Shown here piece after piece: positions 6,487 through 49,588 of a DNA stretch of 64,000 nucleotides (position 1 is the first letter of the stretch; every line of letters starts with the position of its first letter). The notes under the pieces are model-generated. The model made no database searches and was not told the DNA's origin. It saw nothing but the letters and a program-made list of their open reading frames with translations. The DNA lies in assembly GCA_032718475.1 (NCBI GenBank), contig JAUCBJ010009158.1:44143-108142 (forward strand), given 5' to 3'. Both the position numbers and the translations under genes were made by a program. The DNA comes from Nemertoderma westbladi. Its lineage: Eukaryota > Animalia > Xenacoelomorpha.

Positions 6487-6489
6487 TTA

Positions 6490-17401: not shown

Positions 17402-17415
17402 AATATATAAAATAT

Positions 17416-20400
17416 ATTTTGACAGACATATTGACAGATAAACGGACAAACATACAAACTGTACAAATGCTACCAAACATGAAATCTGATACCGCAAATT
17501 AAGTCAGAGTCCAAAAAACAGACATTCCCATGATTTAAGCTTTATAGGGTGTCATATTGTATTTTGACAGACAAATTGACAGACAAACGGACAGACTTAC
17601 AAACTGTAAAATTGCTGCCAAACATGGAAACTGATACCGTAAATGAAGTCAGAGTCCAAGAAAACAGACATTCTCAGGATTTTAGCATTTGCAGGGTGTC
17701 ATATTGTATTTTGACAGACAGTTCGACTGATAAACGACAGACAAACAAACTGTTCAATTGCTGCAAAACATGAAATCTGATACACTAAATGAAGTCAGAG
17801 TCCAAGAAAACAGACATTCCCGGGATGTTAGCTTTGTATGGTGTCATATTGTATTTTGACAGACAGATTGACTGACCTGGCTCATTCCAAAGTAAAGTAC
17901 GGGACATTCGTACACAATTTTGAACTTTGATTGCCTGTACAATGTTATCCACAGCACATATGTGCACAAAATTGTGCTTGGATTAAACTTTCGAATATCA
18001 GCTTTGATTCCGCGAAGCTTATGGCGGGACTTAGTCACTTTTGAGAAAACGCCAGCTTGTCCAATTAAGGTAAAGTACGGATTCGTACGAAATGGTTTTT
18101 TTTTATTTTATGATTTCAATTCTAAAATTTAGCGAATTGTGCGCAGGTACGGTGTTGAGTTGATGTTTAGGATAAAGCTGTATTATTAAGCTTAAATAAA
18201 AATATAAATATAAGACGAATTGCTGCATTGCTAATTTTTTACAGTGTGGTTTGTGTGGTAAAGTATGGGACATTGCTAAGTAAAGTACGGGACCTGTACG
18301 AATTTTATGGTCAAAATGGTCTCTTACACTTAACCTAACAGTAATTTCTGGATAATTAGTGATAATAAAGTGCAACTAAGTATTTCCAACCAAGATATGG
18401 ATACAAAATGTGGGGCGGCCCACAAATTGACCCGAAGTCTTAGCATATGGGTGCCCTTAGGAGTTGTATGTCATCTGTCTAATTTTTGATCGCTAATACT
18501 GTATAACTCGGTCATTTTTAGATGAAATTAAATCAAACCTGGTACGTATGAAGTCTGTCAAAAGTTTGGAAATAATCTGAAGTTTAAGGAATTAAAGGTC
18601 ACATATCAGACAGTCTGTCTGTTGGTACCGATAGTTTCAAAAGTTTGATAAAAACCGAAATAAGTCTGCCAATCATTGATGAAATATAACCAAACTTGGT
18701 ACACATGTAGTCTGTGAAAAGTTTAGAAATTCTTTCCATTTTTCTGAAAATGTATCAATTACTGTACTTACCGATCTTCTTATCTGCTAAAAAAACTAAA
18801 TTTTTTGAAATTTGTTGTAAAGTACGGGACTTTACATGCATAAACTCAAAGATTAGTTAACTGAGGAATGATTCTTAGTTCAAATACATACTTCTATGCT
18901 TCCCCCTACTATCACCCTAAAGCATTATAACACTCCTGCCCTCCAGGTTTCATATATTACATTAATACAGTGCACTAATGTAATCGCCATTATAATGGTA
19001 AAGTATGGGACAATTTTCAATTGGCCGTTATGATGTTTCTGAGGGAGTAGGTTATGAAACTACAGGTAATTGTTTCTTAAGATGACGCAACACAAACGTG
19101 CTTTGCATTCCACTGGGTGATTGGGCTTAGTTAGACTACTTCTCTGTGTATAAATTAAAAATTTCACTATTTATTGGTAAAGTATGGGACTTTATATGCA
19201 TCAACCCAAAGATTTCTTGACTGAGGAATGATTCTCAGTTCAAATATATAGACTCCTATTCTTACGGCCGACTATGACCTTAGAGTATTATAAAACTCAT
19301 GGCTTCACATATTACATTAATACAGTGCACTAATATAATCGCCATTTTGATGGTAAAGTATGGGACAATTTTCAATTGGCCGCCATGATATTTCTGAGGG
19401 AGTGAAGATGAAACTAATTGTTTTATACGATGACGCAACACAAACGTGCTTTGCATTCCACTGGGTGATTAGGCTGAGTAACATCTCTGTGAATAAACTA
19501 AAAATTTCACTATTTTAGGTAAAGTATGGGACATCACAAGATTAACTTTATCGATTTCATTACAGAGGAATGAAACACTGGTGAAATTAAATAAAACCAA
19601 AAAAATTCGAAAAGGGGTTTGTTTTTGATTTGGTACATGCTCAGAAATGTTAATTTATTGGTCATAGGAAGTGCCTACAGGAAACGAAACTTTTGCACAC
19701 TTTTATTCACATTTTGTGCAGAGCAGGTGCATAATTTGTAATTCGACTATTTTTGATAAACCACCTGTGTTGATACAATTTTTAGCACTGAATTCATGAA
19801 GCACGATAAATTTTGACCTAAAATAAGTATAAATTCAAAGCTACATCTCAATTTTAGAAATTAGTGGGGAGGTTGACCTTTTCATGGAATGAGCCACAAA
19901 CGGACAGACATACAAACTGTACAATGCTGCCAAACATGAAAACTGATACGGTAAATGAAGTCAGAGTCTAAGAAAACAGACATTCTTGGGATTTTAGCAT
20001 TTGTAGGGTGTCATATTGTATTTTGACAGACACATCGACTGACAAACGGACAGACATACAAACTGCTCAATTGCTGCCAATCATTACAACTGATACAGTA
20101 AATGAAGTCAGAGTCCAAGAAAACAGACATTCCCGATATTTTAGCTTTGTATGGTATCATATTGTATTTTGACAGACAGATTGACTGACAAACGGACAGA
20201 CATAATATACTGTTCAATTTCTGCCAAACAAGAAAACTGATACAGTAAATTAAGTCAGAGTCCAAGAGAACAGACATTCCCGATATTTTAGCTTTGTATG
20301 GTGTCATATTGTATTTTGACAGACAGATTGACTGACAAACGGACAGATAAAATATACTGTTCAATTGCTGCCAAACATGAAAACTGATACAGTAAATGAA

Positions 20401-20810
20401 GTCAGAGTCCAAGAAAACAAACATTCCCGATATTTTAGCTTTGCATGGTGTCATATTGTATTTTGACAGACAGATTGACTGACAAACGGACAGATATAAT
20501 ATACTGTTCAATTGCTGCCAAACATGAAAACTGTTACAGTAAATGAAGTCAGAGTCCAAGAAAACAGACATTCCCGATATTTTAGCTTTGTAGGGTGTCA
20601 TATTGTATTTTGACAGACAGATCGACTGACAAACGGACAGACATACAAAATTTACAAATGCTGCCAAACATCAAAACTGATACCGTAAATGAAGTCTGAG
20701 TCCAAGAAAACAGACATTACCGTGATTTTAGCTTTGTAGGGTGTCATATTATTTTTCGACAAACGAACAGACATACAAACTGTACAAATGCCGCCAAACT
20801 TGAAAACTGA
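17416..20810. repeat. 141-bp satellite array (17416-17876 and 19896-20810), interrupted by a TIR element
   Basis: Unit TTTTGACAGACAGATTGACTGACAAACGGACAGA...GTCAGAGTCCAAGAAAACAGACATTCC...GTGTCATATTGTA; 47-aa periodicity in the shadow ORF 20011-20667. Confidence 0.93.
17879..19895. mobile_element. Non-autonomous TIR DNA transposon, superfamily uncertain
   Basis: 11-bp TIR GGCTCATTCCA...TGGAATGAGCC; splits one satellite unit (GACTGAC | ACAAACGG); repeated AAAGTA(C/T)GGGAC motif; internal ~350-bp duplication. Confidence 0.8.
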
Positions 20811-21907: not shown

Positions 21908-22114
21908 GGCCGCGTTCACACTACCGAGTCAAAGTTAAAGTCAAAAGACAAAATATAAAACTATCAAAATATCATATATATATAAAAATATCACATGAAA
22001 TTAATTTTTTTCTAGAATGCCCTTATGTATTATATTAGGCCTATATAATGTATTATTATTTATTATTGCTAGCTAGCTATATTTATTTTCTTTTGACTTT
22101 GACTTTGACTCGGT
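21908..22114. mobile_element. PIF/Harbinger-type MITE, left part (its last 15 bp lie at 44515-44529)
   Basis: TTA at 21905-21907 and 44530-44532; TIR GGCCGC(G/A)TTCACACTACCGAGTCAAAGT(T/C)AAAGTCAAAAG; related empty site CTATTTAGATAGACCAGCC at ~44723 and ~51603. Confidence 0.88.
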
Positions 22115-25100
22115 GGTTCCCCACATGGGGTATAGAAACTCGCGCGGCCATGGGCAGGGTCCCCATCTCGCCGCGCCTAAAAAAAAAAAAAGTCTACAAA
22201 AACCGCTGCTGGCTACCGTCAACTCGAAACCTGTAACCCCCATCAAAAAAAGTTTAATCGTAAAGTTGTAGAGAAAAAATTCTAAGGGTACGTCGCGTCT
22301 TCGATTTTTGAATTAAACCCTAATTTTCTAGAACATTCGAATTTTCTAAAAAAGAGACATTCTCAAAAGCATATCAAACTCGAGGCACATGATCCCTGCG
22401 ATTTTCTCCAAACTTTGATAGAAAATAGATAAAAGACGTAAAAAAAATCGCCCCGAATAAAATTCGAACTTTTATGTGTAGATTTCTAGAAAACTGTGCT
22501 TAAATATTCACAATTCCAGAACAAATTTGTCTATTTTACGATAATTTAAATCTCAGTTTGTGTGATATTTACGACAAAACGTAACATCACAAAGTTGGAG
22601 CTGAATAATTTTTTTAATTTTTAAGACTATTTCGAACTCTGTACGACAAGCCGTTCTCATTCTACAGACCTCTGAAAAACTTATATTGCTTAGCAACTGA
22701 CATGACAACGGCCGGTACTGGTAGGGGTTAATTATATCGTTCGCCGCTTCGTTTCTCTTGATTCTACCGATCTGAAACCAATTCTATTCGAAAGAACAAA
22801 GTTTTCTCTATCTACTGGTATTCACAAACCCTCTAAAAGTGATGGGCATATGGGCAAAAAAGTGGGCAAAATATGGGCAAAAAAAATGTAACTTAAATAT
22901 TTTTGGTGGAATTTTTAATTTTTTTTTTACATACAGTAAGTATATCGAAAGGGCATCGCCGTAGAAAAGGTTTGGACGTAATTTGAGAAAAATCCGTCAA
23001 CGCAATCAAAAGTTATTCGAAAAAGAGTGGGCGCGCTGTATCGCACAGCATAATTATTCAATATTACATTGCGTATAGGGCCTACTATACGCAGAGCACT
23101 CCTATTGACGTCATTAAATGTTCCCAGAACATGTATTTATTTGTCATTGGTTGAGGCAGTAGGTAGGAGTTGTATGGAATCACTGCGAGGGGCCAGTTGT
23201 GTTCTATAATTCGAATTGTTGTTTCTAAGCAACCCCACAAACAATACACACAGATTACAGTTGGGTACCGTACGTACCTGTTGCGTGTAGTTTGGTTTTA
23301 ATTGCTGTACGGCAGTTGTATAAATGTACCACATTGACGATGTTGTTATATAATAGATTAATTACGTATGTTAATTAACGCAATTAATTAATTAATTGAC
23401 AGGATGACATCATGGGAGTAATTGTTTTTAATTTACTGTAATTTCTGTATGGTAAGCAAAGCATGTTATAACTGAACGCAATTTTAGCAAGTCAATAAGT
23501 ACTGTAAGTTCCTGTGGTACGGATTAGTTATTCTTTGTCAGTGTAAATTAAATACAGGTTTGTTTGCTGCACTAATTATTCACGGAGCGGCACTACTGTA
23601 TACATTATTATTAGCAGCCTACTGCAATAATTTAATTACGTAATAAAATAGTAAGGATCCGAAAAATATTAGTCTAAATGCCGCTGTAAACCCGGTTTTG
23701 TTTGCATTATTTGATAAGGGGTACAGTATTCTGCCTATTGTAGTGATTTCGATATGGTTTTATGTGATACTGTACATAAGTAGGCCACTTTATTTTACTA
23801 ACTGCCAACTATATATTACATGTATTAGCCAACAGCTAAAAAGACATTCCGAACTCATCGCACTGACTGGCTATTTCGCCTTTGCTTGCATGGAATCCTC
23901 AACTTAGAATTAATTCTGTGTCATCTTCAGTTCCACTCCGAGTTCCATATTTTTCTGTATTTCTTATCAACCAGCCTTTATCTGCTTGTCCGGTGTCTGC
24001 CACTCGCAGTTATATTCACGAGTATAGTAAATTAGTCCCGGCGTAGCGAGAACGATATTAAATTATGAAACTCATCTTCCAGAACATTCTGAACAGACTA
24101 CAGTATATGCCACTTGTATTGTAAGCCTGCATCCCGTTGTACCGGAAGTTATTCTGTAGACGCCGTGCTCCGTGCACCTCGCCCTTAAGGAGGGGTTGCT
24201 GGGGTTAGAGAACAACAAACACTCGGACCTCTTGTACACACGTCCTTTAGTTCCGTTAATAACTCTGTTAGGGTCTACTGTACCTTAGTACTGCAGATAG
24301 TAAGTCATCTTGGAGAGGTCGATTTAAATCACGAAACGCATCACTTTATTAATTTTCCTTATTTACTAGTACCTTCTGTTAAGGTTATCATCAGCCTACA
24401 CCCCGCGTGTACGTCGACCTTGTCATTGTGCTATCGAATCTTGTCCCCACCCCCCACACATTACTTTGTACACCAACCTAAACAATGTTTCGTAAAAAAA
24501 TATTTCTTTATATAAATCCCGTTCTCTATCTAGCCTTTATTGTTATAATTGTTTATTTATTAACAAACCAGAATACACCGAACAAATGCTTCAAATTATT
24601 TTTTTATAATTAGGAATAAATTTCATATTTAATTGGGTTCAATAAATATGGTTTAGATAAGATTTTTATCTTATTGTGTAAATGTTCCAGCGGTATAAGG
24701 AGCTCTTTTATGGTAAAACATATTTACTGTAATTGGTGATTAATATTTAGAGGCTTTGTAATATATTTATATTTTATTTAGTTAGATTTGCTACTGTATA
24801 TAATTACTGTGGCGATTCTCAGGTTCAAATATGAGACGAAGCTATTCATACTGTGGTACCTGATACATAAAATATTTTACTTTACTTTGTGGTACCATCC
24901 AGGGTCTGACAACATCTACTGTACAACACTACGACAAAATAATAATGCATTTAGCTATAGAGGACTATATTTTACATATTTTAGGCCTACTGTTATAATC
25001 ATAGACTAACAACATGACTTTGAGGAAATTAATTTAATATCATATGGTACGAGTGCGACAGTCGCCCTAATTATATGTAACATTGATACAATCTTATTGG

Positions 25101-25954
25101 CACTGATTGGAAATTGAAACAATGTCCGATAATTTCTTTGACACAAATTGAATTTTAAAATAGAATAATGTATATGAAACCAATAATAAAATCAAATTGC
25201 GATTTTTTTAATTTTAATTAAAAAATCGCAATTTAATTTTTTGTTAAATTTACTTACATTATATTTTTGCTGTTATGTTATGAGATGCAGTTTCTTAATT
25301 ATTTTCTATATGAGGCAATATATTCGCATATTAATAGTCGAAATATTTAATGTAAATGTAGAGTAGAAATATATTATAATTTTGTCAGAACTGTGGGATG
25401 AATTCCCTAGCACAAATCACAGGTACTTTAGTAGTGTATATAAATGTTTAAACTAAATGTTATGAAGCTGAAATCAACGTGTTCAAATGCAAAAATGTTT
25501 ATCCTGTCCTGTGTTTTGCTGATGTAATATAGGAATGGTTAACTGACATGGTTGTTCGTGGCTTTATGTGGCCCACATAAATACATTTTCCAAAATAAAC
25601 TGTCTATGCACAAACAGTACAGACTGCAGACAGCCCTTATTAAATCATAGTTCGTTACGAGATACTTTTAGTTTAGTTGGTGTTAGAAATATTACGTCTC
25701 CATCAATATCTACTGAGTAATGACATACCAGGTATAATGCTGTGCATTAAAAGTGCAGTGCTAATTATTTCATGTATTCGATATATTACATTGTTGCTTG
25801 GGTACTGGATACATTCTAGAATTATGTAGTTATTATTTTGTTACTGTTTTTATAAAGTATTTGTGTTTGGTATATCATGTACAGTATTATTATTTGTACT
25901 ATAGGTTGTAGTTTGTATAAAGTGTATAGGTGTATGTTAATGGGATCACTCGGT
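22115..25954 (-). mobile_element. Non-autonomous partner (3840-bp unit) of the HUH-helicase element
   Basis: Left ~1.3 kb nearly identical to 25955-27230; right end TAATGGGATCACTCGGT identical to 44498-44514; no long ORF. Confidence 0.85.
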
Positions 25955-28900
25955 GGTTCCCCACATGGGGTATAGAAACTCGCGCGGCCATGGGCAGGGT
26001 CCCCATCTCGCCGCGCCTAAAAAAAAAAAAAGTCTACAAAAACCGCTGCTGGCTACCGTCAACTCGAAACCTGTAACCCCCATCAAAAAAAGTTTAATCG
26101 TAAAGTTGTAGAGAAAAAAATTCTAAGGGTACGTCGCGTCTTCGATTTTTGAATTAAACCCTAATTTTCTAGAACATTCGAATTTTCTAAAAAAGAGACA
26201 TTTTCAAAAGCATATCAAACTCGAGGCACTTGATCCCTGCGATTTTCTCCAAACTTTGATAGAAAATAGATAAAAGACGTAAAAAAAATCGCCCCGAATA
26301 AAAGTCGAACTTTTATGTGTAGATTTCTAGAAAACTGTGCTCAAATATTCACAATTCCAGAACAAATTTGTCTATTTTACGATAATTTAATATCTCAGTT
26401 TGTGTGATATTTACGACAAAACGTAACATCACAAAGTTGGAGCTGAATAATTTATTTAATTTTTAAGACTATTTCGAACTCTGTACGACAAGCCGTTCTC
26501 ATTCTACAGACCTCTGAAAAACTTGACATTGCTTAGCAACTGACATGACAACGGCCGGTACTGGTAGGGGTTAATTATATCGTCTCGCCGCTTCGTTTCT
26601 CTTGATTCTACCGATCTGAAACCAATTCTATTCGAAAGAACAAAGTTTTCTCTATCTACTGGTATTCACAAACCCTCTAAAGGTGATGGGCATATGGGCA
26701 AAAAAGTGGGCAAAATATGGGCAAAAAAAATGTAACTTAAATATTTTTGGTGGAATTTCTTGATTTTTTTTACATATATCGAAAGAGAATCCCCGTAGAA
26801 AAGGTTTGGACGTAATTTGAGAAAAATCCGTCAAAGCAATCAAAAGTTATTCGAAAAAGAGTGGGCGCGCTGTATCGCACAGCATAATTATTCAATATTA
26901 CATTGCATATAGGGCCTACTGTACGCAGGGCACTGCTACTGACGTCATTAAATGTTCCAGAACATGTATTTATTTATCATTGGTTGAGGCAGTAGGTAGG
27001 AGTTGTATGGAATAACTGCGAGGGGGCCAGTTGAGTTCTATAATTCGAATTGTTGTTTCTAAGCAACCACACAAACAATACACTGTTCTTAGGCAGATTA
27101 CAGTTGGGTACCGTACGTACAGTACCTGTTGCGTGTAGTTTGGTTTCAATTGCTGTACGGCAATGTACCACATTGGTACTGTAGTTATATAATAGATTAA
27201 TTACGCATGTTAATTAACACAATTAATTAAATTATATTAATTAATTATTTATTTATTTATTAACTAAAACATAGTTTAATTTTAATTTCGTTGTACCGAA
27301 GTGGCGAAAAAATACCACATTGGCAGTGCAGTTGCGTATATTGTAGTAGATTAATCGCGTATTTTGTTTATCGCACCCACTTTATAGAATGACAAATACG
27401 TAATAATGATTATTACATTAGTAACGATAACACAAATATTAATTGTTATTTTATAACATTCAGAAATCTGCCTCTTATTTATTCTAGTCTTTCGCGTCGC
27501 ACACGTCATTGCAATTATATACTGATACATATATTTTACACTGAAGACGGGTGTGATCAAATTCCGTAATTCCCGTTCGCAAAATCGATTCCCCTTTTGC
27601 ACACGATTTTATAACAATAATAGTGCCGCTGTATTATCCTAAAGTACATATTATTATTACTGTAATGTAAAGAAACATCATACTACTATATATACTGTAC
27701 GTACATTCGTTGTTTGTTACCATTATACTGTATATAAGTGTTGATGTTTTACAGTATGTTAATAAATCTTTCGGAACATCGTTGTGCAGTATTGATTTTA
27801 TTCCCCCCCCCCCCCCCCCCCCCCCCTGTATGATACTGTAGAAATTCATACCTTGTCTGATTTTAATTATGAGGCAAAATAAAGGAATGGTTTCATTCAA
27901 ATGGAACCGAACCCACCGATATCACACATATCACACTGCATGTTTATTTCAATTTCATTCTATTGTTCTTATACCGTCGCTTCCAGGATGTAAGAGACCC
28001 GCCACCCGGATAAACTGACTCTGAGGAGGATTTATTTATTTCGGGAGAGTGCCGGGGAGGGTAGTTTTGTAAATAATATATTAAAATATAAGGTTGGAAA
28101 TGTTATCGCTTTATTATTGATAATCATAAAATATACCTACTAAATATCATAACATATAATAATTAATTTTTCTGTAAGTGGTGGATCAATTGGGTTCGAT
28201 TTATGCTCGAATACCATTGTTTTATATTATTATATTATATTATTTACAGCAGAAACATACCACATTGAATTAATATATTTATATAAAATCTATATTTATA
28301 AATTGGCAGAGATCCCAAAAGTTGAATCCCAAAAGATCATATTTTTGTGTTGGTTACCCCAAATGTTAATAATTTCTCAAAATATGGAGCTTTTTTAATA
28401 TTCTAAAGAAGAATCCTCTAATAATGCAGTACAGTAAGTAGTTGTAAGAAGGAAAAATATAGGGCCTAAAATAATTTCTTACGAATTCAACGAGTTTGTT
28501 TTTATTTGAAAATATTATACAGTACAGTACAACCGTACCGTAGCTTTTTGTATAAGCTCCGTACAGTATTGTTCGGCATTATACAGTATGCTATAATCAT
28601 ATCATTATAATAATATAGCAAGTCTTGGCTATAATAGATTAAATAACTCGACAAAATTATGTTCGATATTGCGTGGCTCATTAATGATCGAACAGTACAG
28701 TACAATGTAAAATATATAATAAAACATATCCAATAAATTAATGTACAAATGTACAGTAATACAAACACCAAATTCTTTAAGTAGTATATATTTACTATAT
28801 ACATCCCCCGCAGTATTGTTTACTGTATTTGTTTATAACCATTTGAGGTTGTTTATGCGCTCTTACATTAAAAGTATAGGACACTATACTATAATGCGAT

Positions 28901-29228: not shown

Positions 29229-32200
29229 TTAGTTTTGTTTATCGGTAGGTCTCTTTAAAAAATCAGGAGGATCCTTAAGGCTTCCACAAACTACGAGATT
29301 TAAGTCTGGATGGAAGGGTTTGTGGATTTGCAACGTGTCGTGAGCTGCGACCAATACTTCCTTTGGGGGAGCATTGGTCCAATCGTACAGCTCGTTTATC
29401 CGAAGTTTCCAACCAGCTATGACCTGTTGCCGTTGGTAACTGGTTCCAAGTTGATAGTCGAACCCAGTGAAGAAGGCGAGCACTGCCCATGGTCTTAGTG
29501 AAATGTTGGATGTAAAATCATCACTAGTGCCAAATGTACCCCCTTGGTTGTGGTTCTTTAGGGCAGATACCAGACTCTGTGACTCCCCTATATAAGTGAC
29601 GTTGGGACAGGGTCTAGAGATCAGGCAATATACGTAACCGGAAGTTGTTTGTGGGAGGGTCACATTACCTGGCCGGAAGGGGTGGAGACTCATGTCCACT
29701 ACGGGGTAGAGGTCGGAAGGTAGTCGTTGTGCATTGGTTGCCACAACAGACAACACATGTTCAATGTACACGTCGTACTGACTTACCTGACGTAGTAAAG
29801 TAGATGTAGCAAGGAGAATGTCGTCCTTGTTTCCTACGAAGGTCAGGTTAATTAGAAGTTCTAGTCTACTAATCAAGACGATTAATTGAGAGCGGAGCCA
29901 GAGGTGGTACTCGCTCTCAACCTCACTAATAGCGGTGGCTAATTTTAATATTGTATCTCCTAAGATACGATGGATAGTGGCCGCTATAAAATGTCGCAAC
30001 GGGTATTGTGTTCGACGGCCACTAATTCCACGGCCTACTGAATAAGACAATGACTGGAATTTACGAATTGTATATTCCTTCCAACCACTACCTTGTAGGT
30101 CGTCTGGAACCGACCTTTGGCCGGGTGGAGCCACCATTACTTTAAATGGCCCGAGTGGTTGAGTAGGCAGAGAGGTTACTACACATAGTTGGCCTTGGAA
30201 GCAGCCTTTCCGGGAGAGGTCATTCCGTGTGACCCGCATGACAGCACCACAGAATAGTGTGAGTACTTGCTCATCGGTTCGATTATTGAGGACCTTACTT
30301 GTGGCAGCTGAAGCAGACTTCCAGGCAGATTGACCAGTTACTGACTCTTCATCTTCTGCAGTGACTGCCATGCACTCCTTTCCACTGCTTCCAACGACAT
30401 GCAACATATGTTTAACGCTCTGCCGTTCGGCCTTTCGCTTACCAAAAACCCTCAAGGTAGAGGAGTCAACCTCGTCCCAAGTTCGTACGAAATTGCACTT
30501 CCTAGAGAGAATAGAGGTGTACTCTATAATCTCATCCTCGGAAAGGTGCAATTTCCTGATAAGTGTGTTCACCCGAATAAGGTCGGGGTCAAGGGCGGAA
30601 CGGACAAAATGGTTCAATAAAATGATGTTGAAGGTAGTAAACATATGGGTTGACACCCATATTGGATGACCTTTTACTGGGGGCAGCTGTTTTGTATCGC
30701 CAGTGGCAATCATTAGTACACCGCCCAAAGGAGAGTCATTCTCACGTACATGGCGGAGAACCTGATCCAGTACAGCGAACATCTCCGCGCTCACTGTACC
30801 TATTTCTTCTACGAAAAGTACATGTAAATTTCGCAGATAGGCCAACTTCTCCTTGTGGTTATGTAATTTTCGTACCGTTTGTTCCGAGTTAACTGTAACA
30901 TTAGTGATGCCACCCTCGTGGTCAATCACAGGAATTGGCAGTAATTGATGGATGTGTATTCCACCAAATTTAACTGCTCGTTCGGCGGCCAATGATGTGA
31001 ATATAATATTAGCGCCACCTGCGATGGCATAAACCGCACCATAGCACATCACTAAAGTTTTCCCAGTGCCTGGTGGTCCAAGGATCACGGGGAATTTTGA
31101 ATAACTATGGTGCCCCGAAAGAAGTCTATCAACTGCCCGAGTTATGCACTCTATGGCATATTTCTGTTCCTCCATGGATTCCTGGGATTGTCCGGGGGCC
31201 ATTCCCAATTGGGGTTTCCATGGAAGAGGCCGTTCTAAAGTGGCAGCCATCAGTTCATCTAATGACGGCATGTTGACGATGGCTACGTCGAACTTTAATG
31301 CTCTTATTGTGGCCAGTTTGAGATCATGCAGCATTCCTGCAATTTTTATGGTATTTTCCTCTTGCAGTGTACTTAGGAGTACAGTAGGTGTGTCATAAGT
31401 AGTCACCTCATTGTTGAGTATGAGGTTTTGCAGCACATGATCCGCTGCCACAATATACTTATCGGACATTCTCACCCCACCTGGAACGTGTCGCAGTTGC
31501 TCCCACTGGTATTTGGTGAGGATTTGGTCTACATTCTCCTGCGTGTAAGGACCAGCAGCGGGTAAAAGTCCCGCTCTAATAAACGAGTCCCTCATTGTTG
31601 GAACGAGGAACAGGTCTATTTCTGTTATAAACTCCCCCATACTCAACAATAAGTGGACTAAGAATTTAACAGGGTTCATTGGTGTGATGGTTCGGTCGCA
31701 AGCAATTGGAATTTTGTCTTTGAATATACAATTTTGGTATACGTAATTACTAGTAACTTGCTTGTCGTTTAATTCTATTTGATGTATTATGGACAGCATA
31801 TCAGTAACGCGATCTGAATCGTTGGCATGTTTACAATTATAATTTGTACAATATGATTTTAATTCATTTACTGCAGATGGCCGTAGTTGTACTATATGGT
31901 TGGTACCATCTACCCACATTGACTCCCGTATATTTGTTCTTAATTTCCTTTCGTGTATAGATTTAATTTCAGATTTTTTGGATGGCAATTTAATTTGGGC
32001 AAACCAAGTTAAATATAACTTTGGTCGTAAAACAAACAAGAGTTCTGGTGGCCGCAGACAAAACACCGTCATTAGATCAACTGATATGATGGAATCCTGT
32101 TGATCTACCATCGTCATAGTTTGGTTCGATGTGAAATGACGATGGGATGGTAGATTCAGCAGTTGTGAACGAACACGTTCGCATTCTGTATGGGCTGGAT

Positions 32201-34016
32201 GCTTTGGATTTTGGTTCTTCCAAGGCATAACAACCCCAGCCCTATTTTCTATGGAGGTGGTTGGAATATGGATAAATTCTGACGACGGGACAGTCACGGG
32301 GAGGTGTAAAATGTGCCACCCCAACTCAGGAGCACCAACAAGCCGAGCAAACACGGTCTTTTGTTTACTAGCTTGTTTCTGCAATTCCTCCTTGCGCAGA
32401 ATGGCGGGACCTGAAATTTTAATGTTCTTCAGCTCATCCTCCTGAGCGTGAACTACATTGGCCGAGGCTTGGCCTGCGGTGAATCGTACGTCCCGTTTCT
32501 CCTCAGCACCGGCAGCGTATTTGACGCAATAATGTGAACTGGTGCAACCATCGCACACTAACAGGTTGTCGTTGCACTGTGTGGCCGCAAATAATCTGTT
32601 GTTACAGGGCGAGAATATTGGATAGGTATACTCTGAGGCGTAGAAGTGTTTCCCAGCACGGATTGGGGTATGCAATTGGAAGGTGCCGTATTCATTGATT
32701 GTGGCCATACCCAGTCGTTGGTAGACCTGTAACGCTTCCTTGGAATGATTGTTTGGTAACTCTTCATAATAATGTCCATGCGATGGCGGGTTCACGTGTT
32801 TGCGGCAAATACGCTGTCCGGAAGAGTCTACCTTCTTATGGCAGGTAAACCCCGATTTCTCACAATCGTGGATGAGACGTACCAGATTGCGGTAAATCTC
32901 ATCCAGGTGGTCTCTGTCTCGTATGAGACCCTCAGCAAGGAACTCCTCAATCTCATCATTAGTAAAGAATGTCTGTTCAGAGGCTCTGATGCGGAGAAAT
33001 ACCTCATCAGACTCTTTGTCGGCATTCTTTACTATGATTAGAGAATGTATATGTGGTACATTCCCTTTGGTGTCCTGGAACTCCCAGGTGTACCACATAT
33101 CGTCAACCTCACCAAGAGGCTGCTCAGCTGAAAATCTAATGTAATTCATATGATAAGATCCAGCTCTTTGGACGGACCGGAGGAGCTGGATCATGGCGGA
33201 CTGGCGAATCGATTCTGCCATCTTACGAGTGTAAGTTTCCCCAACACAGGGAAGTCCGTTATCTAAGATGTATTGTTGGCGGTGTTTCTCGACAATACAT
33301 TCTACCTGGTGAAATATAGGCTTCACACCGTAGTGGCTGTCCATGGAGAAAGAGTGAGTATAAAAATATGTAGGCTCACCCCTCTCGGCTAGCCAACTAG
33401 CCAATTCAATGACCCGGGTGTTACTGTCAGTAACATCCAGGTTTAATAACCCTGTCTGAATTCCTTTTGGCAGGGTTCCAGCAAAATTTAGTATATCTTC
33501 CCAACCACGGTTGGAAACAAATCTGGTGTCCGTATTTCTTAATAAAATATTTAATAAAGCATCGAAAATAAACTGCAAGTAGCGTGGGTCGGTGGAGGTT
33601 AAAAGGTCTTGGTTTAAAACCCGCACTTGCAATTGGTTACTAAGTGTTTCAAACCCCAACATTTTCCGGGCGCTGGAATTTCCCCAAAGGGGATGAGGTA
33701 TGGCACCCGGAATTGAACCATCCTCCATTAATTGCCAAAAAATGGAAGGGAAAAGAATTGATTCGGGGTACATTAATGATACGGACTTTGTTGGTGTAGT
33801 GGCTACGAGATTTTCCAGCCATCTCTTAAACGATGCTGGCGTATCTACCACATGTCCCCTTCGTTGTAAGAGTCCCATCCCGTGGTTGAGAATAACATGT
33901 CCAGGGACCATCTTTCTTTCAACATTAAAAGAAAGGCTCGACAGACCACTGTCTGTCTGAGGAACAGCACCTGCCGGGTCATGGCCAGTGTCATCAGAAA
34001 ATACACTGGCATTCAT
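29229..34016 (-). CDS. Rep-helicase: HUH endonuclease + Pif1-like SF1B helicase + C-terminal GIY-YIG nuclease (C-terminal part of a disrupted ~2,670-aa ORF)
   Basis: HUH motifs YFYTHS, WYTWEFQ...PHIHSL (~33045-33095), YCVKY (~32516-32532); Walker A GPPGTGKT (~31057-31080), VLFVEEIG, GDTKQLPPV, FVRS, QYPL...AATIH...G; GYVYCLIS...TYIGES (~29580-29640). Confidence 0.9.
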   Translation of the reverse strand: MNASVFSDDTGHDPAGAVPQTDSGLSSLSFNVERKMVPGHVILNHGMGLLQRRGHVVDTPASFKRWLENLVATTPTKSVSLMYPESILFPSIFWQLMEDGSIPGAIPHPLWGNSSARKMLGFETLSNQLQVRVLNQDLLTSTDPRYLQFIFDALLNILLRNTDTRFVSNRGWEDILNFAGTLPKGIQTGLLNLDVTDSNTRVIELASWLAERGEPTYFYTHSFSMDSHYGVKPIFHQVECIVEKHRQQYILDNGLPCVGETYTRKMAESIRQSAMIQLLRSVQRAGSYHMNYIRFSAEQPLGEVDDMWYTWEFQDTKGNVPHIHSLIIVKNADKESDEVFLRIRASEQTFFTNDEIEEFLAEGLIRDRDHLDEIYRNLVRLIHDCEKSGFTCHKKVDSSGQRICRKHVNPPSHGHYYEELPNNHSKEALQVYQRLGMATINEYGTFQLHTPIRAGKHFYASEYTYPIFSPCNNRLFAATQCNDNLLVCDGCTSSHYCVKYAAGAEEKRDVRFTAGQASANVVHAQEDELKNIKISGPAILRKEELQKQASKQKTVFARLVGAPELGWHILHLPVTVPSSEFIHIPTTSIENRAGVVMPWKNQNPKHPAHTECERVRSQLLNLPSHRHFTSNQTMTMVDQQDSIISVDLMTVFCLRPPELLFVLRPKLYLTWFAQIKLPSKKSEIKSIHERKLRTNIRESMWVDGTNHIVQLRPSAVNELKSYCTNYNCKHANDSDRVTDMLSIIHQIELNDKQVTSNYVYQNCIFKDKIPIACDRTITPMNPVKFLVHLLLSMGEFITEIDLFLVPTMRDSFIRAGLLPAAGPYTQENVDQILTKYQWEQLRHVPGGVRMSDKYIVAADHVLQNLILNNEVTTYDTPTVLLSTLQEENTIKIAGMLHDLKLATIRALKFDVAIVNMPSLDELMAATLERPLPWKPQLGMAPGQSQESMEEQKYAIECITRAVDRLLSGHHSYSKFPVILGPPGTGKTLVMCYGAVYAIAGGANIIFTSLAAERAVKFGGIHIHQLLPIPVIDHEGGITNVTVNSEQTVRKLHNHKEKLAYLRNLHVLFVEEIGTVSAEMFAVLDQVLRHVRENDSPLGGVLMIATGDTKQLPPVKGHPIWVSTHMFTTFNIILLNHFVRSALDPDLIRVNTLIRKLHLSEDEIIEYTSILSRKCNFVRTWDEVDSSTLRVFGKRKAERQSVKHMLHVVGSSGKECMAVTAEDEESVTGQSAWKSASAATSKVLNNRTDEQVLTLFCGAVMRVTRNDLSRKGCFQGQLCVVTSLPTQPLGPFKVMVAPPGQRSVPDDLQGSGWKEYTIRKFQSLSYSVGRGISGRRTQYPLRHFIAATIHRILGDTILKLATAISEVESEYHLWLRSQLIVLISRLELLINLTFVGNKDDILLATSTLLRQVSQYDVYIEHVLSVVATNAQRLPSDLYPVVDMSLHPFRPGNVTLPQTTSGYVYCLISRPCPNVTYIGESQSLVSALKNHNQGGTFGTSDDFTSNISLRPWAVLAFFTGFDYQLGTSYQRQQVIAGWKLRINELYDWTNAPPKEVLVAAHDTLQIHKPFHPDLNLVVCGSLKDPPDFLKRPTDKQN

Positions 34017-34179
34017 TGCAAAATCTAGATCGTCTGTGTAATCTAGAGGTTAATGAGAGATGACCTCTACTTCCGGGGACACGTCACAATACACGTCATC
34101 AATGACGTCATCTTCACTAAATGGCTCATCATGCTCTACAGTCAGGATGGCCTCATCTTCCGGTGGAGGAAAAATGAAA

Positions 34180-37100
34180 CTACCCCGTTCTGAAGAACAT
34201 GACTGCCAGTGCTTCCTGCAAAGTGCAGCTGCGCATTGCTTGCAGGGTTGCGCAGTAAATGCTGGACACCTCCAAGCAGCCATCCTTTTTGCACCTCGAC
34301 CCATTTTCTAATGTTTCTCCACATTTGAATATATTATTTCGCAGTTCTCTAATAAAGGGATGCCGGTGTGTGGCACATTTAACTTTAGATTGGCCACCCA
34401 TTGATTGTAAGGTTTGGTCCCTTAAAAGGGAGCCGTCTACACTATATATAGTTGTATAGACTGCGAGAGACCATTTTCGCAGTATGTCAGTCGGCAGTAC
34501 TGGAGACTTTGTTGGAGTCTTGTTAGACTCTATATACCATCCATTAACCCCGAAAGGATATGACTGGTATATGATGGCGGAAGTGGAGGACGAAGTGGCA
34601 AGGAGGCGTAATTGCCAGGTATTGATATGGTTTACGGAAATAATTTTCGCCGGGACAAATGGAGTGGAAAAGGCCGGTGATGGCCTTTCTACTTTTAAAT
34701 GGGAAAGAAGTCGAAATGATGCCGTTCGTGGCGTATCCATAAGCCTTTCTACTGTCGATATCAATACGACATTCACTTCCGAAGATGGTGGGAGATTCTG
34801 AATAAATGCAGACACATTTTCATTAGAAATAATGGCTCTATGTTCAATCCGAATATTTTCTATTTTGTTCAAATTGGAGAAGATAGTAGCCACTTGCTGC
34901 GGCACTGGCGCTGCGCCCTCTATTGATGGGATGTTACGTAAAACTTCATTAATTTGTAAATCAGTTGGTCGTTTAATGAATGGTATATTTCTATTACTAT
35001 TTTTTGAGGCAGTAAAGGGTTTACTATATTTAGACAAATAGCGTAGCAGATAGCCACACCATTTGAAGTTTCCGTCATTGACTGAAAGTTGTAATGACTT
35101 CCACACTGCATCCACGTTAAGTGAAATGGAAGAACAAAGATACAGTACCAAGTTGCTATTATCTTTTATGATAGGTACTAAGGGCATAGCGCCGTAGCCG
35201 TCGCAATTTTGCACGTTTGGAACAATTTTCGGCCACAATCTCATTTGGGACGAGTTGAACTGTACCGGATTTCCAACTACAGTACCTATTACAGGTTCGG
35301 GTATATTTGGGTGGTTGTTAAGTGGTTCAACAACGGCATCACCCTGGTCAGCCAACAAAACTGGTGACTGAACGCGGTTGCAAACTACGTTCCCCAGAGA
35401 AACTTGCTCCAAAACCTGATCAATCTGATCATCAGGAAGTGATCCAATATGTTCCGGATCATTTTCCTGAATATGTTCCAGATTAGGAACAGTCACAGTC
35501 CCTAACTGGTCCCGTAGTGCTAAAGCACTTGATAGAGGTAGTGCAGTACCTTTGGATAGGGCGGAGAACAGTCCCTGTAAATCCAAAGGTTTAAGGACAT
35601 TAATAAATTGCTCCATTGTCTGCTCAGACAACTGACCGTTATTTACAAGATTGTAAAGTAGGGCCAGGCAATCTGGGCGAGTTTGGAGCAATAATGATTC
35701 TAACTGCCCCACTCTCTCGTCTGTGACATCAAAACGTCGATCAGTCGTGAGAGTGAAGCTGGTCATACCGGAATACGCTCCCTGTTCCTCCCACATTTGG
35801 TAGGTGTGGGAAGCGTATCCGGCTTTGGCTGTTCGAAATGTTCTCGGAACAAACACTGCGGAGCCAAGGCGGTCGGGAATTGTGCAGGGGAAACTCCCTA
35901 AAACAGGGTTGGGTGGGACATGTAAGTAGCGAAGGGTATTGCCACCCTTGTGTAGTTTACACACACGAATGCACAATCCCTCTTCGTTGGATATCGTAAC
36001 TGACGGAGCAACTTGGAAAATTTCTAGGAACTTTACTGTCTCCATCCAATCAGGACGCATATATTTCAGATGTTTAGAGCAGTAGACAGTGAAGTCGGGG
36101 ACGACTTCATTTAGTATCGCCGCTAATGATATTGGTTTGGAGTATTCTAGAAACTCGTGACAGCCATAAACACATCTAACCGAACAACTTGGGTGTCGAT
36201 TAAGTGCGGCTATGAGTCTCACGAGTTTCATCGAGTTGATGTCATCTAGAAACACCGAGATATCAGTGGTAATATCTCTGAAATATGGTGGTGGCGTTTC
36301 TATGGTGACATCAACTAATGAGTGGTGCATTTGGGACACTGAAGGCAACCACGATTCCCGCAAGGATGTTGTGATGAATTTCCACGGATGAAAATCATCA
36401 ACCACACCTTTAACGGAAAGGAGGTGCCAGAGAACAGAGGGCCACATGAAATGCCATTGGCGGTTTGCAGACTTATTTTGTTTATCCAGATAAATTGTAC
36501 ATAGTGTGCACAGTATTGCACAATTATTATCTGTACTACTTTTATTTACATGTCCGAAGCGTTTATTACAGGCCACGGAATTACAGTATATATAGCCGAG
36601 GTCTAACTCGTTAGAGGGTAGAGCCCAACGAAAACAATTCTGGCACATTAAAATTTCTGTGCTGTGTGTTAATGATTGCGGTACCATCGCAATATCTGAC
36701 TCATTTGTGTTCAATGTGATTATAGAGCGCACTGCTTGGATGGCTCTATGTGACCTACAGTAGTACATAGAATCAAATGCCACAAAAGTGTTATGGCAAA
36801 CTAAACATTGTTGATGCCTACTAATTTCGAGAGGCTGGATGGAAACTTCTGAGTCACTTCCGATTACCTCCCCGTCCGAAGTAAAATCGTCAATATCATC
36901 ATCTGATAAATCAAATGATGACGATGAATCACCAGCTGATGATTTTTCTATTCTACTCACGTCACTGTCACTATCACTGCTTTCTATGTTAGCTGACGCT
37001 GCACTACGACTGGTATTACTTTCAGGGTTGCGTTTACTCCAACTCATTTGATGAGCATTGCAATATAAACTACTTGTTCTACAAATTCGACGGCATACCT

Positions 37101-37230
37101 GGCACCTTTGTCGGTTAACACGGGTTCTTGGAGTGTGAGACTCATTTTGGGACGACATCAGGATGGATTCCTCCTCGTCACTGTCGGGGTATTCTAAACT
37201 GGATTCCGACTCGAATCCATTATTGTACAA
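34180..37230 (-). CDS. Cys-rich N-terminal part of the same transposase polyprotein, function unknown
   Basis: 1016-aa stop-free ORF with several CxxC/CxxH clusters; joins the Rep-helicase frame if one A is removed at 34286-34290 and the TAA at 34050-34052 is read through. Confidence 0.78.
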   Translation of the reverse strand: MYNNGFESESSLEYPDSDEEESILMSSQNESHTPRTRVNRQRCQVCRRICRTSSLYCNAHQMSWSKRNPESNTSRSAASANIESSDSDSDVSRIEKSSAGDSSSSFDLSDDDIDDFTSDGEVIGSDSEVSIQPLEISRHQQCLVCHNTFVAFDSMYYCRSHRAIQAVRSIITLNTNESDIAMVPQSLTHSTEILMCQNCFRWALPSNELDLGYIYCNSVACNKRFGHVNKSSTDNNCAILCTLCTIYLDKQNKSANRQWHFMWPSVLWHLLSVKGVVDDFHPWKFITTSLRESWLPSVSQMHHSLVDVTIETPPPYFRDITTDISVFLDDINSMKLVRLIAALNRHPSCSVRCVYGCHEFLEYSKPISLAAILNEVVPDFTVYCSKHLKYMRPDWMETVKFLEIFQVAPSVTISNEEGLCIRVCKLHKGGNTLRYLHVPPNPVLGSFPCTIPDRLGSAVFVPRTFRTAKAGYASHTYQMWEEQGAYSGMTSFTLTTDRRFDVTDERVGQLESLLLQTRPDCLALLYNLVNNGQLSEQTMEQFINVLKPLDLQGLFSALSKGTALPLSSALALRDQLGTVTVPNLEHIQENDPEHIGSLPDDQIDQVLEQVSLGNVVCNRVQSPVLLADQGDAVVEPLNNHPNIPEPVIGTVVGNPVQFNSSQMRLWPKIVPNVQNCDGYGAMPLVPIIKDNSNLVLYLCSSISLNVDAVWKSLQLSVNDGNFKWCGYLLRYLSKYSKPFTASKNSNRNIPFIKRPTDLQINEVLRNIPSIEGAAPVPQQVATIFSNLNKIENIRIEHRAIISNENVSAFIQNLPPSSEVNVVLISTVERLMDTPRTASFRLLSHLKVERPSPAFSTPFVPAKIISVNHINTWQLRLLATSSSTSAIIYQSYPFGVNGWYIESNKTPTKSPVLPTDILRKWSLAVYTTIYSVDGSLLRDQTLQSMGGQSKVKCATHRHPFIRELRNNIFKCGETLENGSRCKKDGCLEVSSIYCATLQAMRSCTLQEALAVMFFRTG

Positions 37231-40200
37231 GTTACAGTATGAGTCGTGTGTTTCAATCTGGTTAGTACAGTACTTACGTTTTCACCAGAGTTAGTGTCTG
37301 TTGGTAACATGACCTGTACCTCAGGTGGTACTATCTGGCTACTATAGTGATAATTTGGGGATCGTTGGCGTTTGATAGAGGAATCTCGCTGTTTATGGAT
37401 GACGTACCAACAGCAGACAATTCACAGCGGTCGCAAACTTCGGATAAACCCGACCGTTCGTTCGATATAATGCATTGGCATTTGGAACATTTGTTTATAT
37501 GTCGCTTACGTTTTTTGGACACGAAAAGCATTTTGATTTTAGAAAGGATTTAGACCCTTCACCACAGATACTCAGATTTAATAGTTTAATGTAATATTAG
37601 ACTTACAGTACGCCTACACATATATGTTTTATATTGTAATTAACAACAAATAAGGCAAAATTAACCCAATTGATCCAAGTAAATATCCTACAGTACAAAC
37701 AAACATTTACATTTACAAATAAACATTTAAACAGTAACAATAAACATAAACATTTAAACTTTTAAACAGTAACAATAAACATAAACATATAAACATTAAC
37801 AATAAACAAACATTTCCAATATTTAATTAAATAATTCGTATACTTATTTATATTCTGTTGAATATTCGATATATTCAGTAAAGTTCCACGCTTGTCCCAC
37901 AGCAGACTTAACTGGATCCAAGCAGAATTTAAACTTTATCTTTAACAGACTTACTGTATAACAGGTTCGTCGTGGAAATATGAATATATCTGAAAAGTAA
38001 ATAAAATTAATGTAAACGATTAAACGATGGTGGTAAAATAAAAGGTTAATTAGATTAACTAGTTAAGGATTAAAAGGCAGTATATACCAACTGTATAATG
38101 AAAGTAATTTTACCGGTACAGTAGGTAGGCCTACAGTACGTACTGTAATTTATTATTGGCGTATTCAAATTAAATTATTTCCGTCTAATTGAGTCGACGT
38201 AATTCGCAGGAAAAATGTTGTTCCCGTCGCTAATAGATACTGAGTTTTAATTGATAAGATAATTAACGGAAGAACTACTGTTTGTTATGTTGATGATAAC
38301 TATAATAATATTACGTGTTATAATAATTTATTTATATACTACTGTCAGACTAACGGTATCAGTTTATTATGCAGAATAAATCAGCAGGCCATTTACACAA
38401 CGTTGGTGGTAAACTTTTATTTAGTTGAAGAATCATCCGAAGAATCTTTAGGTTAAGTTAAACCTCCTTGTTAGGTTCAACGTTAGGTCCAACCTCCTTA
38501 TAAACACTGTGTGATTATTAAGCACTGAAAGAAAAATATTGCACAATACAGTACTTATACAGTATACAGAATAAATGGAAAGTGACGAAATAAATGTCGA
38601 CCTACAGTATAATACATAGGCTTATACAGTATTATACCATCGAATATGCAGGTTAATGTTATCTGTATCGCAAGCATTTATCATAGCGAACTGCGTACAT
38701 CAATTAATAAAATCTAATAATTTATTGTCACGATATTTTTACCCCTTGAAATTTTGTAATTTATTACATAAAGTACAACATAGGCCTAAATTACAGTTCG
38801 AGTTCGGTATTAGTTATAGGCCTAGTATGAGTTTATATTTAGTAAAACAACTTTTCAATGTGATTCCACCCACATGTGTGTAATTATTATTAAGATACTG
38901 TATGGGAGACCTACGATATTGTTTAAATACAGTACCGGTTGGCATAAGGTACAAGAACAAACTAAACGTGATTAACAAACCTGTTTGTTATACTTTGTTA
39001 CAATAATCTATCATCTGTTTCTATAACATCTGTAACATCTATAATCATCTGTTTCTGTATCTGTAATCGTTATGGGCGGAGAGACGAAGAGTAAGCGATG
39101 AGACGTAGTACGCTAATCGACATTACGACATACTGAATTCGATTAAATCGTCCGCGACCGCTATACTTCTTACCAATGACCAATCAATTTGTTTGATTAA
39201 TTTGTCTGTTTGTTAACCCTTGTCATCAGGTATAATTGGCCAAGTGATACTGTCTGACTGTAGTACTAAGTAAAACAATGACAACAGATGTTACCGATAG
39301 CGAAACTCATTAATTGCCTATCTTAAATAATAATTCAGGTTAAAAACACTTAAAATTTAAGAAACAAAACGTATCCAACCCTTTTGGGCGCCAAAGTAAA
39401 AGATCCTGTACATATACAGTAACTACTGATTGCAGCAACTACACCGGCAGACCGGTACCGCTACCGCTAAGCGCTACCAAAAGCAGACGGCCAGGCTGTC
39501 AGGCAGGCTCAAATACTTTTAGTACCGCGGTAGTAAATGCCACCGGCTTGGTCCTATACCAGGAACCGGTCATCAACTATCTGACCATCTGTTAGTCCAC
39601 TTATATCAGTTATGCTATGCTACTATCAGACTACATGTATGGTCAGATGGTGGTTAAGTAGCCCAACCATAAATACTTCCAGTATTATAAATGCAACTGT
39701 TTGTACAGCCTGACAGCTGTTACTGTAATCACTAGTCAATGTTCAGGCTCCTAAATATATAATTCATTATCAGTTACAGGTACAACCATCAGCGAATCAA
39801 ACTGTCAAATATACTTTCAGTTTTAAACCATAACACTGTTTTAGCTTAAACGTACCGATACCGCTTGTAGGCCTATATCGAGGTGTACTAAATAATTTTA
39901 GTTATTTATTTATTTGCAAACACTACCTACTTTTCTAAATAATGTTAGTTCTTAATTAAGATATTTTAGTTAATTCATCTTTTCGTTCACCTTGGCCTAC
40001 ATTTGGACTTAAGTGTAGGCCTATCCTTAATCAGCTGTATACCCTACCGGTACTAACTACTGTAGGCCTATCAACTACTAAATTTAGTAACTGCGCCGCT
40101 CTGCCGGTAGCTGTAATCAGCAGTGATTTTAGTTTACTGATAATAAAAACTTTTAGTAGGCCGAACAAGACGGTACCGGTAGCGCGGTAGCGTTTCCCTA

Positions 40201-44734: not shown

Positions 44735-46026
44735 ACCAGCCATTACAAGTAAACTCACGTCTGAGATAAAGTTTAAATAAAACATGCAGCCTTAAGTAAT
44801 GGAGCTGTCTTATGGTTGCATGTCATATTATAATAATAATTATTATGTTTTTTTAGTCATATTTTGGTCAGTTAATAAATACAATATTATATATGATTAA
44901 ATTAGTTAGTTAGTTAAATTATTTAAATGATTTAATCAATTGAAAATATAAAAGAAATGAAAGTACAATAATTTTTAGTTACTAATTTCATCCTGGCTAG
45001 ATAGCACAAACTTCACACTAAATATTGGTACAGAGAGACAAAAGATAGATAAATGGGACGGTTGCAGTAGAAAGGGCACATGTCCCAAAGTTCAAAGCTT
45101 TAGAATACATCTCTGAAACTACCGGACTAATAGATCGACTGACAAACGGAAAGACATACAAACATTACAAATGCTGCCAAACACGAAAACTGATGCCGCA
45201 AATGCGATACGGTAAATGAAGTCAAAGTCCAAGAAAACAGACATTCTCAGGATTTTAGCATTTGTAGGGTGTCATATTGTATTTTGACAGACAGATCGAC
45301 TGACAAACGGACAGACGTATACAAACTGAACAAATGCAGCCAAACATGAAAACTAATACCGTAAATGAAGTCAGAGTCCAACCAGCCATTACAAGTAAAC
45401 TCACGTCTGAGATAAAGTTTAAATAAAACATGCAGCCTTAAGCAATGGAACTCTCTTATGGTTGCATGTCATATTATAATAATAATTATTATGTTTTTTT
45501 AGTCATATTTTGGTCAGTTAATAAATACAATATTATATATGATTAAATTAGTTAGTTAGTTAAATTATTTAAATGATTTAATCAATTGAAAATATAAAAG
45601 AAATGAAAGTACAATAATTTTTAGTTACTAATTTCATCCTGGCTAGATAGCACAAACTTCACACTAAATATTGGTACAGAGAGACAAAAGATAGATAAAT
45701 GGGACGGTTGCAGTAGAAAGGGCACATGTCCCAAAGTTCAAAGCTTTAGAATACATCTCTGAAACTACCGGACTAATAGATCGACTGACAAACGGAAAGA
45801 CATACAAACATTACAAATGCTGCCAAACACGAAAACTGATGCCGCAAATGCGATACGGTAAATGAAGTCAAAGTCCAAGAAAACAGACATTCTCAGGATT
45901 TTAGCATTTGTAGGGTGTCATATTGTATTTTGACAGACAGATCGACTGACAAACGGACAGACGTATACAAACTGAACAAATGCAGCCAAACATGAAAACT
46001 AATACCGTAAATGAAGTCAGAGTCCA
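44735..46026. repeat. 646-bp tandem duplication including 141-bp satellite units
   Basis: 44735-45380 repeated at 45381-46026 (offset checked at two anchors); satellite continues to 46254. Confidence 0.88.
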
Positions 46027-49138: not shown

Positions 49139-49588
49139 TTAGGGGGTAGGTCAATTTATGCAAATAGTCACGTTGGCCCTCTAGCGGCAGACTGGAGAAC
49201 TGCAGATGGATTCGCCTCCTTTGAAAGTCACAGCTAATGGTCTAATACATATCTGCCAAGTTTCAGCTTAAACGGATTAAAAGCAAAGAAATGGGAGGGC
49301 ATTTAATGTTTAGACATGTGGCCCTCTAGCGGGAGACCATTGCACTGATGGTGTCTGAAAGTCTCTCAAAAATCTCAACTTTTGCTCATATTGATACCTA
49401 CAAATTTTCAACTTGGCAGCTTTAAATCCGACAAAGTTATTAGCATGTCAAAATCGTAACGACGACGACGACGACAACGACGACGACGACGACGACAACG
49501 ACGACGACGACAACTATTTGCATAAATTGACCCACCCCCTAACAGTGTCAATTCGCTAAGGCTCCGCCAACTTCGTGGCTCGCCCCAC

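Follow-up and report, generated by a model that had tools for sequence, protein, structure and literature searches.

The classification of Helitrons recognizes two clades, HLE1 and HLE2, and a recently added ciliate one. Helitron-like elements are expected to have defined termini with a 3' hairpin and to make no target-site duplication; HLE1 elements run from 5'-TC to a hairpin-CTRR-3' end and insert at AT, and HLE2 elements have subterminal inverted repeats and insert at TT. Helraiser, an HLE1 element, needs the HUH motif, two tyrosines, the Walker A lysine and the arginine finger (PMC4778049), and the motif 2 consensus reads (V/I)ExQxRGL(P/L)HxH in HLE1 and ExQxRGS(P/L)HxH in HLE2 (PMC4067079). 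A GIY-YIG domain beside a Helitron is already on record, since the HELIANO study (Li et al. 2024, PMC11417382) reports one captured copy in HelenSM92, a Sphagnum HLE2 family; HELIANO assigns every match to one of two classes by best score. The ciliate clade was described in Paramecium (Arnaiz et al. 2026, PMC13085455) as lying outside HLE1 and HLE2, having ORFs of 9-10 kb and targeting telomeric repeats, and GIY is not mentioned in the accessible portions of its text and 7 supplements, nor in those of Heringer and Kuhn 2021, and the GIY-YIG passages of further papers concern other elements. Our search of the literature, which covered sources other than Repbase, Dfam and subscription journals, returned no description of a Helitron-like clade with an SLX1-type tail. 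As for that domain, Slx1 cuts branched DNA and has Arg36 and Glu79 as active-site residues (PMC4407285), and HIGLE cuts branched DNA without SLX4 (PMC9071465).

Here, we analysed a locus in a 64-kb window (the whole stretch of DNA under study) of eukaryotic DNA rich in repeats, LTR retroelements and satellites among them, and we consider it probable that this locus is a broken copy of a multi-copy, Helitron-like rolling-circle transposon, whose single protein of ~2,650 aa combines a large N-terminal region with HUH/Y2 Rep, Pif1 helicase and SLX1-type GIY-YIG domains, the last predicted to be inactive in this lineage. The preliminary description had recognized a HUH Rep, a Pif1-type helicase and a C-terminal GIY-YIG nuclease in one polypeptide, and all the motifs it quoted are present in the minus-strand ORF at 29229-34016 (1,595 aa): YFYTHS at residue 217, WEFQDTKGNVPHIH at 311, YCVKY at 496, GPPGTGKT at 980, VEEIG at 1069, GYVY at 1460, YIGES at 1475 and LKNHN at 1486. 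On this protein alone, Pfam recovered PIF1 (E=3e-10), with Helitron_like_N (E=0.032) and GIY-YIG (E=0.053) below the cut-off, so both ends of the protein needed testing; predicted folds and the profiles of relatives upheld both weak assignments. That description needs correcting on the extent of the gene: the 1,595-aa ORF, taken then as the whole protein, is the C-terminal 60% of a transposase gene, and both the N-terminal 40% and the broken state of this copy had been missed.

The N-terminal half of the same gene is an upstream ORF at 34180-37230 (minus strand), which in tblastn aligns with the N-terminal half of 8 among the first 10 homologues, with a frame switch near 34290, and is matched by 59 of the 61 representatives of at least 2,200 aa. 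Its in-frame part (34287..37230, minus strand; ~980 codons, first in-frame ATG at 37158) has an acidic and Ser-rich start, clusters of Cys/His and a family-specific region. It has no match in Pfam, NCBIfam or Atlas (the last queried with residues 190-600 of the N-terminal ORF), and this half of the family's proteins finds 0 matches among 120 HLE2 proteins. If the two breaks are bridged with X, translation gives a product of ~2,667 aa, or about 2,640 from the first ATG; the gene thus encodes ~2,650 aa, and in this copy a frameshift and a stop interrupt it. The frameshift is an extra base in a short A run at 34286 (minus strand), evident from the tblastn frame switch and from contigs of other samples, namely three runs (X1, X2 and X3) from two samples whose contigs were compared with an 8.4-kb stretch; the base is absent in contigs with depth 94/153 (X1), 261/303 (X2) and 50/88 (X3). 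The premature stop, a TAA in an acidic linker at 34050..34052 (minus strand), is specific to this copy, being a sense codon in all covering contigs of the three runs (3/3, 3/3 and 2/2). Both lesions could be mutations or assembly errors. That this copy is distinct and ageing is shown by a 60-bp in-frame insertion at 34683..34742 (strand not assigned), which has an 11-bp direct repeat at its flanks: X1 and X3 contigs carry a joint that skips the 60 bases, and at 34694/34741 the depth peaks and the loose ends are unlike one another. In four runs, the 48-bp core of the insertion (34694-34741) is found in numerous further contexts within this species, continuing into one common sequence on one side, and is likely the end of a high-copy repeat.

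The Rep domain lies at 32490..33440 on the minus strand, with motif 1 (YFYTHS) at 33368, motif 2 of the form EFQ-x7-HIH (H322, H324), motif 3 YCVKY (Y496, Y500) and a predicted Zn site formed by H383, C392 and C404. E312, Q314, H322, H324, Y496, Y500 and the His/Cys site are invariant in all 16 alignment rows. A model of residues 30-600, of middling quality (pLDDT 59), has Helraiser 7LCC as its sole significant Foldseek match (E=1.9e-4), the two aligning over 219 residues with a Z of 13.6 and an rmsd of 3.9, and the next structure reaching a Z of 5.9. The insertion in motif 2, which had been listed as a departure from the Helitron consensus, proved to be a mark of the family: 7-10 residues separate EFQ from the HUH histidines in 86 of the 86 matching family representatives, that is, 2-5 more than the five found in 112 of the 112 matching HLE2 proteins. 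WEFQDTKGNVPHIH fits neither the HLE1 nor the HLE2 consensus of motif 2. An HLE2-like F/Y-x-R signature ahead of motif 2 is found in several relatives (WFRYEFQ in P0002) and is absent from this protein.

Downstream of the Rep, a Pif1-family SF1B helicase with motifs I-VI (K986, E1071, Q1110, R1139 and R1384) occupies 29847..31169 on the minus strand and accounts for the significant Pfam match. As a single sequence it retrieves Bacteroides Pif1 (PDB) at E~1e-11 and Helraiser 7LCC at E=0.39. The K, E, R and R of these motifs are kept in all 111 scored relatives, and Q in 110 of them. The EE of Walker B, earlier read as a sign of divergence from Helitrons, is not diagnostic and was rejected as a family marker, since 81 of the 111 scored relatives have DE; EE is commoner in members with a dead nuclease (17/22), which share a subclade, than in intact ones (13/89). 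The 22 nuclease-dead relatives all keep the Walker A Lys, the Walker B Glu and both Arg residues. Counterparts of all residues needed by Helraiser are present in this protein.

Although the element is single-copy within the window, the lineage is not: contigs matching the 8.4-kb stretch at 85-100% identity numbered 178, 170 and 232 in the three runs, with 4 contigs on the stretch in a fourth run. Deletion joints at 31041-32293 and 35823-37551 recur in all three runs and represent internally deleted derivatives. The second of these joints, together with a depth that stays high to 37600, indicates that the non-coding DNA upstream of the gene (37231..37600, minus strand) is likely part of the element, the true 5' end of which lies beyond 37600. 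The lineage is under purifying selection, as seen in an excess of synonymous differences (23 of 36 coding differences against 23% expected, p=1.5e-7), the 36 coding rows being drawn from the best-supported 40 of about 794 differences and not a random sample. Among the relatives, one protein cluster has six full-length copies at least 90% identical on at least five large contigs. A hairpin scan and a self-BLAST of the window found no terminus or subterminal repeat linked to the ORF; no empty site or insertion preference was found either, so the probable mobility of the element rests on copy diversity and homology.

Several other repeats surround the element. A 1.3-kb non-coding repeat downstream, present in two copies 94.6% alike (22108-23391 and 25948-27230), resembles a non-autonomous element: one end carries an AT-rich palindrome, and two GC-rich hairpins lie shortly ahead of the opposite end (minus strand). 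We considered this repeat as the 3' end of the element but left it unassigned, as nothing ties it to the ORF. An identical 18-mer with loosely similar following sequence flanks the element at ~25954 and ~44514 (minus strand), the former overlapping the end of the 1.3-kb repeat, and is possibly an old repeat or a shared target. Elsewhere in the window, an LTR retrotransposon at 490-6804, likely a young insertion, has two identical direct repeats (490-789 and 6505-6804) and, at 1331-5988, ORFs for protease, RT and RNase H; further retroelement ORFs at 46560-49237, 54540-56078 and 61819-62334 comprise a gag zinc knuckle with protease/RT/DUF7047 and RT fragments. Dispersed arrays of a 145-147-bp satellite with a CAGA-like microsatellite sit inside longer repeats (17415-17872, 19896-20761, 45132-46255 and 52223-52525), and long inverted repeats at 56740-57737 and 60930-64000 (170 bp of a 10-mer array; about 250 bp at 99%) resemble MITEs or foldback elements. 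A 326-aa ORF at 6997-7977 consists of 27-bp and 84-bp repeats and has no credible Pfam match.

The C-terminal domain (29247..29648, minus strand) is a GIY-YIG domain of the SLX1 lineage. The preliminary reading of a GIY-YIG fold is borne out by a model of residues 1376-1595 (pLDDT 70, again middling), for which the top 11 Foldseek rows are all Slx1/HIGLE (best E=6.5e-5), with Z values of 11.2, 10.9 and 10.5 against Slx1/HIGLE, 5.4 against I-TevI and 3.5 against UvrC; the family profile matches Slx1 at E=6e-10, and Atlas gives a borderline GIY-YIG match (0.90). The RING-like pair of CxxC is absent here and from the tails of 113 of 114 relatives. Of the active-site residues Tyr, Tyr, Arg, His and Glu, this protein has Y, Y, A, H and I, the catalytic Arg being replaced by Ala1485 (29564) and the Glu by Ile1533 (29420), and the nuclease is therefore predicted from these residues to be catalytically dead in this lineage. 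All five residues are kept in 87 of the 114 relatives; for Arg and Glu alone, 89 keep both, 22 have lost both and 3 have lost one. An X3 contig has 0 differences over 29229-29789, and contigs from X1 and X2, which span this interval within longer stretches, differ at 6 of 1,455 and 9 of 1,838 bases, so the loss is a trait of the subfamily and did not arise by decay of the present copy. On a quick family tree built under a single model, the Arg/Glu state changes 9 times, at least 8 of these being forced by starred branches, and 21 of 23 dead rows, this protein included, fall in one 42-row subclade. Loss of the nuclease active site thus appears to recur across the family while the helicase residues stay.

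By homology with Helraiser, the element likely moves by peel-and-paste. The HUH domain would nick one strand at the 5' end of the element and stay attached through a tyrosine, the helicase would then peel the nicked strand off, and a second nick at the 3' end with tyrosine-mediated strand transfer would yield a circle or an insertion at a new site. Peeling and strand transfer would be expected to leave flaps, forks or junctions, and in most members the SLX1-like domain, if it behaves as its cellular relatives do, may cut such branched intermediates without the need for SLX4. In this lineage and about a fifth of the relatives, where the active site is lost and the fold kept, the domain may do no more than bind branched DNA or pack onto the helicase, with resolution left to host enzymes. 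That catalysis was lost repeatedly and the fold retained suggests that cleavage by the domain is useful but that host enzymes can stand in for it, and that binding may have a value of its own.

The preliminary description instead proposed that the GIY-YIG domain nicks the target. The same element could indeed use the domain to nick or open its target site, by analogy with the Helentron AP endonuclease or the GIY-YIG of Penelope elements, with dead lineages exploiting existing nicks or forks. The position of the domain after the helicase parallels that of the Helentron endonuclease, and the number of relatives with an intact active site, or the retention of Arg and Glu in 78%, fits this explanation just as well, although according to PMC8788227 the function of the Helentron endonuclease is itself not established. 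We nevertheless regard it as unlikely, and for this protein in particular, given that the catalytic Arg and Glu are absent, that the domain is closest to the structure-selective SLX1, that it is predicted to be dead in a multi-copy lineage under purifying selection, and that its active site disappeared so often while the helicase residues stayed. Compared with target nicking, a role in processing or binding branched intermediates would fit better here, judging by analogy.

The protein belongs to a sizeable family. A first search retrieved 10 homologues at 27-35% identity, seven of them of 2,200-2,740 aa and seven with PF01541, and a full scan with residues 196-1395 returned 345 representatives (clusters at 50% identity) at E<=1e-30 and 942 at 1e-10. 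The best 150 of the 345 share 27-40% identity with the query; 132 of them extend as far as helicase motif VI, and in 114 the tail measures at least 150 aa. In all 114 the SLX1-like domain could be aligned, the 18 with shorter tails falling outside this scoring, and Pfam finds GIY-YIG in 17 of the 17 long members scanned, 16 above the cut-off. Named hosts among the 30 clusters examined are Perkinsus olseni, P. chesapeaki and the tunicate Styela clava. Some members (P0164, P0003 and P0202) have a Ulp1 protease after the nuclease, or an N-terminal OTU domain. Rfam gave no match, and a metagenome scan (1/64 parts), swamped by the Walker A pattern, gave only 3 weak helicase matches.

In phylogenetic analyses, the family appears apart from the sampled HLE1 and HLE2 in both Rep and helicase trees. 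In the Rep tree, built from 28 family, 18 HLE2 and 9 HLE1-like rows, a branch with 100/100 support separates it from the rest, with a stem of 2.1 against 1.1 and 1.1, and sits on well-supported separate branches in two helicase trees with viral Pif1 (7-10 animal Helentrons and 3 HLE1-like rows). These trees are unrooted and their outgroups narrow, comprising animal Helentrons, HLE1-like contigs from MAGs and viral Pif1, with Helitron2, proto-Helentron, Sphagnum and Paramecium sequences outside the sample. The HLE2 rows are relatives of one Helentron, and the HLE1-like rows were picked from MAG contigs by a motif scan, which means that they have a canonical motif 2 because they were selected for it. 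Rows left out after failed extraction numbered 14 in the first helicase tree, 10 in the Rep tree and 4 in the second helicase tree. P0002, which stands beside P0140 in the first helicase tree, has a branch of 5.7 in the second, most likely because a looser regex cut the wrong region. Separately, 17 contigs in prokaryotic genome records (L039-L055), mostly MAGs, have a Helitron motif 2 of the canonical form, and in three of them the Rep-Hel ORF is nearly full; they are likely eukaryotic contamination.

The claim of a distinct lineage made in the preliminary description accordingly stands as far as the separation from the sampled HLE1 and HLE2 goes, but its view of GIY-YIG as a new companion of Helitrons does not wholly do so, in light of HelenSM92. 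We find it quite unlikely that the family is a divergent member of a described group, be it HLE2 families like HelenSM92, the third clade of Paramecium or a Repbase/Dfam family. HelenSM92 and the sorting of every HELIANO match into two classes would allow for this, as would the 3 of 150 representatives that pass two-class HMMs at 1e-5 for both domains (small profiles built from our own outgroups, not those of HELIANO), so that a member may already have been classed with HLE2; OTU in some members recalls HLE2, and the Paramecium ORFs, as described, are also of 9-10 kb. Against it stand the separate branches, a motif 2 outside the published consensus, and a score of 92 bits for a true Helentron compared with at least 648 for family members; membership in the Paramecium clade is further opposed by one Hel01 copy, translated by eye, with canonical motif 2 spacing and without a C-terminal GIY-YIG. 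An origin as a virus- or plasmid-like replicon that integrated, or as a host gene that was domesticated, as opposed to a transposon, would agree with the missing termini and with a helicase about equally close to bacterial and viral Pif1 and to Helitron helicases, but is highly improbable considering that two family scans of IMG/VR viral contigs found no relative, that plasmids give 5 short helicase matches only, that there is no capsid or other ORF nearby, and that many divergent and deleted copies exist, with hosts as scattered as Perkinsus and a tunicate.

The family is a large Helitron-like clade, apparently unnamed so far, that is marked by the SLX1-type domain. For a bolder proposal the balance is about even: that this is an undescribed major clade whose depth equals that of HLE1 and HLE2, that it comprises hundreds of animal and protist lineages, nearly all of them overlooked by two-class Helitron profiles, and that in it an ancestrally fused SLX1-type resolvase would act on rolling-circle intermediates and would repeatedly have turned into a non-catalytic binder. 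If true, the existence of a further clade with at least 345 clusters at 50% identity, mostly missed by such profiles, would leave a considerable share of the diversity of rolling-circle transposons without annotation. A clade that gained an SLX1-type nuclease independently, and in which intact and dead forms occur naturally together, would open the resolution of Helitron strand-transfer intermediates and the reason for the extra nuclease of Helentrons to study by point mutants. This locus adds a predicted-dead nuclease in a lineage under purifying selection and a loss that is recurrent across the family.

Compared with HLE1, represented by Helraiser (7LCC), the family has the same Rep fold, HUH/Y2 motifs and a Pif1 helicase that follows the Rep in one protein, whereas its sequence is remote, its motif 2 is longer, its proteins have a median of ~2,550 aa against ~1,500, and it carries the C-terminal SLX1-type domain; it does not nest in the HLE1 clade in the Rep tree with 9 HLE1-like rows or in the helicase trees with 3. 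Helentrons and other HLE2 elements resemble it in having a Rep-Hel protein with a nuclease after the helicase, long N-termini and, in some members, OTU, but their nuclease is an AP endonuclease and not an SLX1-type GIY-YIG, DUF6570 is lacking here, 0 of 120 sampled HLE2 proteins match the tail profile of the family, and the family falls outside 18 (Rep) and 7-10 (helicase) animal Helentrons. Replitrons, reportedly described by Craig in 2023 as eukaryotic elements with a HUH transposase, have no helicase, whereas the protein studied here includes a complete Pif1 domain together with a Rep fold of the Helraiser type. HelenSM92 likewise has a GIY-YIG in a Helitron-like element, but is reported as a single capture, in a single family that was assigned to HLE2, as opposed to a clade of hundreds of clusters. 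The third clade of Paramecium shares the position outside HLE1 and HLE2 and, in one Hel01 copy, the EE of Walker B, and has ORFs of 9-10 kb; in a by-eye translation of that copy, the spacing of motif 2 is canonical, and the protein stops ~75 aa beyond motif VI with no GIY-YIG. Finally, SLX1 and At-HIGLE have the same fold and motifs as the C-terminal domain, which here comes without a RING, is fused to a transposase and, in this protein, has lost its active site.
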